From IMG/VR virus record IMGVR_UViG_3300050821_003111: 24,824 nt of DNA, one strand, 5' to 3'. Below the pieces are notes generated by a model. The model was not told the DNA's origin. It saw only the letters and a list, made by a program, of their open reading frames with translations, and did no database searches. This document shows positions 13,541-14,287 of this stretch, in pieces; position 1 is the stretch's first letter; every line of letters begins with the position of its first letter. The stretch comes from a virus. Both the position numbers and the translations under genes were made by a program.

Positions 13541-14287
13541 CTACTTACTCTGTTCATAACCATGAACAGGTATCTTATTATACAAATAATCCCGGTCTTG
13601 AGTGAAGATGGGAGTATTAGTATCAGCGATCCATTTGTGTCTATCTTCAGGCGTTGCTACTCTTATAATAGCATGCCCTCTTTTGTTTCTAATAGAATAA
13701 TCATCCCAGTTCTGACCTTTCCGAAAGATCATTTCTTGTAACTGGGAGCTATTCTTACCGTGGAGCTCTTTATGCGAGTATAAAGATTGAGCTACCATTT
13801 GAATGCTATTTCGTGTGGCATCCTGTTGACGCCAAATAAGATAGTTTAAAACTTCTTCTCTATCGGGGATGACGAAAGCTCGAGCATCAAACGTAGCCGA
13901 TTTAAAGGAGTGAGTCGAAGAACATTGTGCAATTATTTCTTCGTTAAATGCGGCAGTCGCCATACTTGATGATATCGATACAATCTTCTGGAGATTGCCA
14001 TTGAACCATGCCTCGGTGTGTATGTTATCGAAATCTGTGGTTATGATAGAGATTTCGTCACTCTGTACGTATGCAATCTGTACGCCTTGAATGCTGCTAC
14101 AGAGCTCGATAGCTGTCCTATCCATTGCGTATGAAATAGAGTCGTCAAAAGGCCTTTTGAGGTTACGTGTGTAACTGTGGAAGGCTTTACCGTCAATCCG
14201 GATAACCGTATAGGATCTTCTTGGTAATAGTATTCGTATCCTGTCTTCATATCGCTCTTTCATTCTTTGCCCTAGAGCATCAATCAT
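13541..14287 (-). CDS. Thg1-like protein (tRNA-His guanylyltransferase family 3'-5' nucleotidyltransferase)
   Basis: N-terminal YEDRIRILLPRRSYTVIRIDGKAFHSYT matches the Thg1/TLP signature (VVRIDGxxFH). ATG at 14287 with a GGGGAAG Shine-Dalgarno, overlapping the upstream stop by 8 nt. The track's GTG at 14299 is the alternative. Confidence 0.8.
   Translation of the reverse strand: MIDALGQRMKERYEDRIRILLPRRSYTVIRIDGKAFHSYTRNLKRPFDDSISYAMDRTAIELCSSIQGVQIAYVQSDEISIITTDFDNIHTEAWFNGNLQKIVSISSSMATAAFNEEIIAQCSSTHSFKSATFDARAFVIPDREEVLNYLIWRQQDATRNSIQMVAQSLYSHKELHGKNSSQLQEMIFRKGQNWDDYSIRNKRGHAIIRVATPEDRHKWIADTNTPIFTQDRDYLYNKIPVHGYEQSK

Follow-up and report, generated by a model that had tools for sequence, protein, structure and literature searches.

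The 24,824-nt stretch of viral DNA in IMG/VR record IMGVR_UViG_3300050821_003111 (referred to here as the window) carries a gene for a Thg1-like protein (TLP), which is real and apparently intact and would give a large uncultured phage a bacterial-type reverse (3'-5') RNA polymerase. Reverse polymerases are rare enzymes whose natural role beyond the maturation of eukaryotic tRNA-His is still poorly defined; phage TLPs are abundant and always annotated by homology. What could such an enzyme do for a phage? It is encoded in a conserved cassette, together with an Rnl1-type (T4 RnlA-like) RNA ligase and a small protein with four invariant cysteines (Cys4). The cassette lies within an RNA-repair and counter-defence island that also holds a second RNA ligase, a metallophosphoesterase, a SpoU methyltransferase, NAD+ salvage genes, a NADAR-domain protein, five tRNAs and a miniaturised RNase P RNA (Table 1). 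In our judgement the TLP probably, if by no means certainly, repairs tRNA 5' ends in infected cells or checks their quality, restoration of G-1 included. The clean conservation of the cassette leads to a testable idea, namely that phages rebuild damaged tRNAs, beyond resealing them.

The Thg1-like protein and its active site

The longest reading frame of the gene starts at a GTG codon (13541..14299, 252 aa), while an ATG at 14287 gives a protein of 248 aa. The ATG is taken as the true start because gene callers chose it on five independent metagenomic contigs encoding an identical TLP (ENA, Logan and JGI; at least four samples), and because the resulting N-terminus agrees with that of homologs (M-x-D-x-L-G-x-R-M-K). 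The original prediction of a Thg1-like enzyme here was borne out: Pfam Thg1 (PF04446) matches the protein with 102.7 bits against a cutoff of 29.2 (E 1.9e-29, profile positions 3-130 of 130), and phrog_4717, 'tRNA-His guanylyltransferase', matches it end to end (3.6e-84). Judged from the sequence, the family match is far above chance, and the assignment to the Thg1 family and to the TLP subtype is near certain. In a PDB sequence search the Bacillus thuringiensis TLP (BtTLP, 4KGK; E 9.1e-61, 208 bits) came out as the closest relative of known structure, with 47% identity over 229 aligned positions. The eukaryotic Thg1 enzymes score far lower (Candida 50 bits, 1.8e-12; human 37 bits, 2e-8; yeast 35 bits, 7e-8), in line with the predicted TLP type rather than the eukaryotic type. 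The archaeal MaTLP reaches only 30 bits (3.6e-6), and the protein therefore belongs specifically to the bacterial branch.

Is the active site intact? The relevant residues were defined in the BtTLP structure paper (PMC3701042) and mapped onto the window TLP, with the numbering of the 248-aa protein used throughout; conservation was read from an alignment of 40 TLP homologs with 45-79% identity. The catalytic carboxylates are D29/D76/E77 in hTHG1 and D30/D75/E76 in BtTLP, two of them binding Mg2+ ions (PMC3701042). The metal-binding acidic residues expected of such an enzyme are in place as D32/D77/E78, which align to the BtTLP triad and are invariant in the 40 homologs. The nucleotidyl-transfer site includes R27, K95 and R130 in hTHG1, and E12, R28, R131 and R147 in BtTLP (PMC3701042); the residues that position the nucleoside triphosphate (NTP) are kept as E14, R30, K101, R136 and R153, again invariant. 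The activation step involves K44, S75 and N161 in ScThg1 (PMC3701042), and the serine is present as S76 in the window TLP and in every homolog aligned. The HINNLYN motif is absent, as foreseen for a TLP: the aligned segment reads T158-R-N-S-I-Q-M164 (TRNSIQM) and keeps the first Asn alone. Met164, at the position of the last Asn, matches M158 of BtTLP, which stacks on the bound purine base (PMC3701042). With its active site intact, the TLP is predicted to be catalytically competent.

The fold points the same way. An AlphaFold2 model built with 38 homologs has a pLDDT of 91.1 and a pTM of 0.87, and all 32 Foldseek matches to the PDB at E <= 1e-3 are Thg1/TLP chains, with BtTLP 4KGM at the top (TM-score 0.87/0.95, 1.8 A). 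The next folds in the list are distantly related Cas10/GGDEF palms with E >= 1e-2, so that no other nucleotidyltransferase fold gives a better match. The model contains a beta-hairpin at residues 205-221 (strands 205-210 and 218-221), and Arg216 sits in an 'RxxW' column conserved across homologs. In MaTLP a hairpin (R198-R215) with a conserved Arg binds the tRNA elbow (PMC4820378); the modelled hairpin would be its counterpart, presumably with the same function.

The resemblance to BtTLP thus extends over sequence, fold, carboxylate triad, NTP-binding residues, the Met at the last HINNLYN Asn and length (248 against 245 aa). The two differ in that BtTLP is bacterial and the window TLP phage-encoded, and no Cys4 partner is known for BtTLP. 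Eukaryotic Thg1 (yeast, human, Candida) shares with the window TLP the superfamily, the palm fold and the two-metal carboxylates, but only ~20-23% identity, and it has the HINNLYN motif. It also adds G-1 opposite A73; in the window, where tRNA-His already encodes G-1 and carries C73, there is no call for non-templated addition of G-1.

The Rnl1-Cys4-TLP cassette and its distribution

The minus strand carries all sizeable open reading frames (ORFs) and all five tRNAs of the window. Because every gene lies on this strand, transcription runs from Rnl1 to SpoU, in the order Rnl1 ligase, a 67-aa ORF with two putative transmembrane (TM) stretches, Cys4 protein, TLP, a major vault protein (MVP) homolog, a hairpin and SpoU. 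The original prediction had placed the TLP immediately downstream of MVP, which is true in plus-strand coordinates alone; in transcription the TLP is upstream. The overlap that it had noted with a Cys-rich ORF is real, 8 nt long (ATGATTGA, where the Cys4 stop overlaps the TLP start), but this ORF precedes the TLP rather than following it. Translation of the TLP is probably coupled to that of the Cys4 protein.

The Rnl1 ligase matches Pfam RNA_lig_T4_1 (9e-20), phrog_562 (6e-62) and T4 Rnl1 in the PDB (2C5U, 2.3e-12), and its KxDG motif reads EKLDG. The four invariant cysteines of the Cys4 protein occur as FCC...PYCPWC. The protein has no Pfam, NCBIfam or PHROG match and falls into only two clusters in a database of 5.8 billion proteins; it is a candidate accessory factor that probably binds zinc.

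How well is this arrangement kept? The closest TLP relatives, all on metagenomic or viral contigs, are L036 (78% identity, 7.3-kb contig), L024 (67%, 159 kb), L026 (63%, 219 kb) and L037 (62%, a 110-kb IMG/VR contig). In the window and in all four relatives an Rnl1-type ligase gene precedes the TLP by 0.2-1.2 kb, and a Cys4 homolog stands between the two genes in three of them (L024, L026 and L036). L036 also has a small ORF of 66-67 aa at the position of the two-TM ORF, and L026 encodes a T4-type Pnkp (AAA_33 and HAD_PNKP) 8 kb upstream of the TLP. Megablast of window positions 10400-16200 against 50,697 annotated phage records gave no match.

Downstream, the TLP stop codon is separated from the MVP start by a 20-nt spacer with an AAAGGAG Shine-Dalgarno sequence. 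Co-transcription of the two genes in this phage is plausible because of this short gap, because no convincing terminator was found between them and because a strong hairpin (12 bp, seven of them G-C) follows right after MVP. The suggested co-expression with MVP is to that extent reasonable, but it is not conserved, as MVP is found in one of the four relatives. The TLP is followed by MVP and SpoU only in the window and in L036; in L037 SpoU comes right after the TLP without MVP, and L024 and L026 have neither. The SpoU homologs of L037 (72% identity) and L009 directly follow the TLP, and that of L103 comes 1.3 kb after it. MVP homologs occur in only three of the annotated phage records, all from uncultured huge phages (462-735 kb) with no TLP within 20 kb of MVP; a 750-aa ORF near the TLP of phage RAS14 was considered and is not MVP. 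A conserved TLP-MVP coupling was rejected, since the cassette occurs without MVP in L024, L026 and L037 and the huge-phage MVPs have no nearby TLP; the linkage is therefore lineage-specific and no functional evidence.

Phage TLPs as such are common. By tblastn the family is found in 164 of the annotated records, always below 60% identity, including 46 Bacillus, 15 Prevotella, 13 Caulobacter and 11 Mycobacterium phages and the jumbo phages G, XacN1 and 201phi2-1; most carry the annotation 'tRNA-His guanylyltransferase'. Relatives occur in more than 569 IMG/VR stretches, and homologs number at least 8000 in the 5.8-billion-protein database. The neighbourhoods of 90 viral TLP loci (TLP +/- 10 kb) were surveyed by tblastn with the window proteins. 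NAMPT is the commonest detectable neighbour, less than 5 kb from the TLP in 17 loci, which suggests counter-defence islands. A phosphoesterase is found near the TLP in seven loci (directly upstream in five: L014-L017 and L019), an Rnl2-like ligase in six (adjoining the TLP in L018 and L046), an Rnl1-like ligase in five, and SpoU and tRNA-His in three each. Among annotated phages, RtcB (Goe8) or RnlA (RAS14) lies 3-4 kb from the TLP.

The TLPs of PHROG 4717, among them Bc431v3 gp143 (Bacillus), phage G gp378, the 'putative Thg1' of Pseudomonas 201phi2-1 and those of Xanthomonas XacN1 and Stenotrophomonas RAS14, are of the same family end to end and come from large phages with many genes for tRNAs and RNA metabolism, an RNA ligase often being close by. 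Identity of the window TLP to the 164 annotated records does not exceed 50%. The clade described here differs from them in that Rnl1, Cys4 and TLP form a cassette of its own, behind which MVP has been inserted. Anantharaman, Iyer and Aravind listed the 201phi2-1 Thg1 gene in 2010 and predicted tRNA repair from Thg1 neighbourhoods with a polynucleotide kinase and an RNA ligase (PMC2904730). Iyer et al. (2021) counted Thg1 among the RNA-repair enzymes of jumbo phages (PMC7824862), and phage genome papers describe the gene as unusual and note that it 'may modify phage or host tRNAs'. A phage TLP with a repair role has thus already been proposed, and the gene taken singly adds little to those two proposals from comparative genomics.

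Proposed role in tRNA repair and its alternatives

TLPs are template-dependent 3'-5' RNA polymerases that restore tRNAs with truncated 5' ends in vitro and place G-1 across from C73. A 5'-monophosphate end is first activated with ATP or GTP, and a 5'-triphosphate end can also serve; nucleotides are then added by Watson-Crick pairing with the 3' strand of the acceptor until the stem has its full length (PMC3701042, PMC4820378). The hairpin gauges acceptor-stem length independently of the anticodon, while addition of G-1 opposite C73 relies on another binding mode, for which the His anticodon is needed (PMC4820378). In the sequence of events that we propose, host nucleases would damage phage or host tRNAs, with loss of nucleotides on the 5' side. 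The TLP would rebuild the lost nucleotides by templated addition and re-add G-1 to tRNA-His opposite C73. Rnl1 and the second ligase would reseal broken tRNAs alongside the TLP, and the phosphoesterase, a candidate end-healing enzyme, would heal RNA ends. SpoU might protect the repaired RNA by 2'-O-methylation, much as Hen1 does in the Pnkp/Hen1 system of bacteria, and the island may also counter NAD+ depletion. We infer the substrate tRNA, the trigger by host nucleases and the partnership with Cys4 or Rnl1.

A repair role had been put forward in the original prediction. It is reasonable, and the Rnl1-type ligase upstream of the TLP in four of four relatives strengthens it; the arguments drawn there from tRNA-His and from MVP are weaker than the cassette. 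The closest parallel is the Pnkp and Rnl1 pair with which T4 answers the PrrC anticodon nuclease. In both cases phage enzymes would restore damaged tRNAs, a KxDG Rnl1-type ligase is adjacent to the TLP here, and L026 has a Pnkp. T4 differs in having no TLP: its broken ends are healed and sealed only, with no re-synthesis of nucleotides.

Several observations weigh against tRNA repair. No polynucleotide kinase was found among the scanned ORFs of the window, only the metallophosphoesterase; the window makes up 24.8 kb of a probably much larger genome, to judge by relatives with contigs of 110-219 kb. All five tRNAs of the window, each with an encoded CCA, have perfectly paired acceptor stems and thus show no genome-encoded need for 5' editing. 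We know of no anti-phage nuclease that trims tRNAs at the 5' end; those described cleave the anticodon loop or the variable loop. Beyond this clade the association with ligases is sporadic (~11 of the 90 viral loci), and NAMPT as the commonest detectable neighbour fits a counter-defence island as well as a dedicated repair operon. The literature search found no experimental study of any phage TLP, which does not prove that there is none. Lastly, the lysine of the activation step (K44 in hTHG1, K43 in BtTLP; PMC3701042) is replaced by Arg45, with Lys44 beside it. Across the clade the Arg45 column of the 40-homolog alignment is mostly Arg and sometimes Lys, and the replacement is therefore the clade norm and presumably no lesion.

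The tRNA-His itself was correctly placed and laid out by the original prediction. ARAGORN reports 24351..24426 with anticodon GTG, G-1 being position 24427, and in the ViennaRNA fold the discriminator C73 lies opposite G-1 in an 8-bp acceptor stem. The encoded G-1:C73 had been read as a pointer to repair, but this is the ordinary layout of bacterial tRNA-His and is known to coexist with TLPs (PMC4820378). The tRNA-His genes near the TLPs of L026, L040 and L057 likewise encode G-1 opposite C73, while the acceptor stem of the L050 gene gave no clear reading. In two unrelated IMG/VR contigs, L040 (9800-9876) and L050 (6750-6824), a tRNA-His lies 125-490 nt directly upstream of the TLP. Mitochondrial TLPs of Dictyostelium and Acanthamoeba offer a further comparison, as they rebuild acceptor-stem 5' nucleotides by templated 3'-5' addition. 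Their tRNA genes encode acceptor-stem mismatches, whereas all five window stems are fully paired; programmed 5' editing of mismatched phage tRNAs is therefore not indicated and was rejected.

Some alternatives turn on the RNase P RNA of the island. Rfam RF00010, the bacterial type-A model, matches 270 nt of the minus strand with 106.3 bits (gathering score 100; E 6.5e-32), spanning the whole model. Helices P1-P4 and the conserved J-regions are kept, with strands GAGGAAGUUCAGG and ACAGAAACCUGG and motif CCGGGUAG present, as is the L15 'GGGUA' (GGU) motif. The L15 motif of RNase P RNA pairs with the tRNA 3'-RCCA. The specificity domain (S-domain, P7-P14) is incomplete, 18 nt replacing 97 model positions, and the P18 segment is deleted. 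With most of the S-domain and P18 gone, the RNA is therefore predicted to work like type A, yet it is no canonical member. Nhmmer profiles and manual helix checks show that P1, P2 and P4 pairing is kept with differing sequences (covariation) in four viral copies. The syntenic copy of L024 (14363-14611, 249 nt) scores 130 bits; that of L037 (12626-12835 and 13199-13269) is apparently split by a ~370-nt insertion. The copy of L026 (~17125-17335, ~205 nt), missed by Rfam, has clear P1, P2 and P4 helices and lacks the whole CAAAUAGGG...CCGGGUAG (P15/L15) module.

Does the TLP go together with such RNAs more generally? A motif scan of IMG/VR returned 97 stretches, ~80 of them probably by chance, and 15 passed a profile filter. 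These 15 further viral contigs (20-358 kb) carry RNase P RNA-like RNAs of 220-330 nt (L033, 3059-3392, among them), every one located inside a tRNA array; these arrays reach 32 tRNAs over a few kb. No TLP was found in their fetched flanks. A general co-occurrence of TLP and mini RNase P RNA was accordingly rejected, as it was not found beyond this clade; the RNA is a feature of tRNA arrays, and its proximity to a TLP is clade-specific.

These results bear on the idea that the TLP is a back-up for tRNA-His. Pre-tRNA-His would be cut at +1 instead of -1, either by the mini RNase P RNA or by a host RNase P that has been perturbed, and the TLP would re-add the C73-templated G-1 for charging of the phage or host tRNA-His by HisRS. 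The window does hold a tRNA-His with G-1:C73 and an RNase P RNA without most of its specificity domain, L026 has the same trio of TLP, tRNA-His and RNase P-like RNA, and L040 and L050 have their tRNA-His close upstream of the TLP. TLPs are moreover able to add G-1 opposite C73 through the His-anticodon binding mode (PMC4820378). We nevertheless consider this back-up role unlikely. In the window, ~10 kb separate tRNA-His and TLP; near viral TLPs in general, tRNA-His shows no enrichment (3 of 114 tRNAs in the 90 loci, and none in the 17 loci of a first set); 89 of the 90 loci have no RNase P RNA, and the 15 other contigs with such an RNA have no TLP in the fetched flanks. The L15 GGU motif, CCA and G-1:C73 are determinants of RNase P cleavage at -1, and the window keeps the first in its RNase P RNA and the other two in its tRNA. 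A narrower version, in which the TLP proofreads 5' ends made by an RNase P without its S-domain, is attractive, weakly supported and, in our view, highly doubtful. A broader one makes the phage self-contained in the production and repair of tRNA 5' ends. The mini RNase P RNA would process the tRNAs, and Rnl1, Cys4 and TLP would proofread and rebuild miscleaved or nuclease-attacked ends, re-add G-1 and restore break-lost nucleotides before ligation, thereby defeating 'repair-defying' nucleases, with Cys4 as an unrecognised accessory subunit of the TLP or the ligase. We regard this scheme as quite improbable.

Other alternatives leave tRNA 5' ends aside. Might the TLP act on a different RNA (the RNase P RNA, phage small RNAs or an RNA of an MVP shell), or adenylylate 5' ends as a ligation intermediate for Rnl1? 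Eukaryotic vaults carry small RNAs, and the tight, probably co-transcribed Rnl1-Cys4-TLP-MVP arrangement would suit either function. The first Thg1/TLP step, which gives a 5'-App intermediate, is also the step of an RNA ligase, and ligation via 5'-App has been raised before (PMC2904730). But every TLP substrate characterised so far is a tRNA or resembles one, the window TLP keeps the putative elbow-binding hairpin with its conserved Arg, most relatives with the cassette have no MVP, and Rfam detects no vault-RNA-like family in the window; such a substrate or function is doubtful. The TLP might also be a decaying gene or one without catalytic activity, carried along as a passenger in an accessory region that is hypervariable; the island does contain lineage-specific insertions (MVP and SpoU) and repeated MKWW-type elements. 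Against this stand a full-length ORF that is identical on five contigs from at least four samples, catalytic and NTP-binding residues invariant across homologs of 45-79% identity, a high-confidence model and a position kept in four relatives, and we consider a dead passenger extremely improbable.

Other features of the island

Table 1. Features of the window discussed in the text.
Feature	Positions	Strand	Basis
Calcineurin-like metallophosphoesterase	3656..4204	minus	Pfam Metallophos_2 6.8e-7
tRNA-Ile(UAU), 93 nt, ~25-nt insert in variable region	2718-2810	minus	ARAGORN
Miniaturised bacterial type-A RNase P RNA, 270 nt	8663..8932	minus	Rfam RF00010
NADAR-domain protein	9511-9978	minus	NADAR domain; syntenic in L024, L026
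~30-nt repeat, six copies	10237-10267, 10366-10390, 16345-16369, 16668-16698, 22073-22103, 22318-22348	minus	
SpoU/TrmH-family RNA 2'-O-methyltransferase, 184 aa	10482..11036	minus	Pfam SpoU_methylase 5.4e-15
Terminator-like hairpin, 12 bp, 7 G-C	11058..11085	minus	just past MVP stop codon
MVP homolog, 806 aa	11100..13520	minus	MVP_shoulder, Vault_3, rat MVP
TLP, bacterial BtTLP type, 248 aa	13541..14287	minus	Pfam, PHROG, PDB, AF2/Foldseek
Cys4 protein, 116 aa	14280..14630	minus	conserved position in relatives, no family
67-aa ORF, two hydrophobic stretches, abuts Cys4 gene	14631..14834	minus	two-TM reading by sequence inspection only
Rnl1-type (T4 RnlA-like) RNA ligase, 396 aa	14951..16141	minus	RNA_lig_T4_1, phrog_562, 2C5U
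NAMPT, NAD+ salvage pair with NadM-like protein	19523-21001	minus	Pfam
NadM-like NMNAT/Nudix	20994-21968	minus	Pfam; PDB 2QJO (bifunctional NMNAT/Nudix) 3.4e-7
Second RNA ligase (PHA02142 OB fold and RNA_ligase domain)	22873..24162	minus	domain match; syntenic in L024, L026
tRNA-His(GUG), encoded G-1 and CCA	24351..24427	minus	ARAGORN

Synteny of the window with L024 and L026 extends over the second RNA ligase, the NadM-like NMNAT/Nudix and NAMPT, the NADAR protein, the metallophosphoesterase, SSB, a peptide deformylase and several tRNAs. Further auxiliary genes on the minus strand encode a preATP-grasp protein (glutathionylspermidine-synthase-like, 2.4e-144; 4664-5806), the peptide deformylase (1529-2182) and a weak match to a SprT-like metalloprotease (22487-22870).

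The TLP is arguably less surprising than two features near it, the phage MVP homolog and the mini RNase P RNA. The MVP homolog matches Pfam MVP_shoulder (2.7e-26) and Vault_3 (2.8e-10) and residues 342-763 of rat MVP (E 5e-15); it is made up of an MVP repeat, a shoulder and a coiled-coil region of the cap-helix. For the RNase P RNA, no blastn match was obtained in annotated phages and no Pfam RnpA-family match among the scanned ORFs of the window. The literature search found no description of a phage-encoded RNase P RNA, which leaves its absence unproven. The SpoU protein has weak NCBIfam matches to TrmJ, TrmH and TrmL.

The tRNA-Ile(UAU) falls below the gathering score of the Rfam tRNA model, and its syntenic counterpart in L024 is a normal 76-nt tRNA. 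The ~30-nt repeat (AGGAAAT..ATGAAATGGTGGG) consists of a Shine-Dalgarno sequence and ATG-AAA-TGG-TGG, opening short 'MKWW...' ORFs. Its six copies lie in three intergenic gaps on both sides of the block from Rnl1 to SpoU, and may belong to a family of small-peptide genes or be regulatory or mobile repeats.

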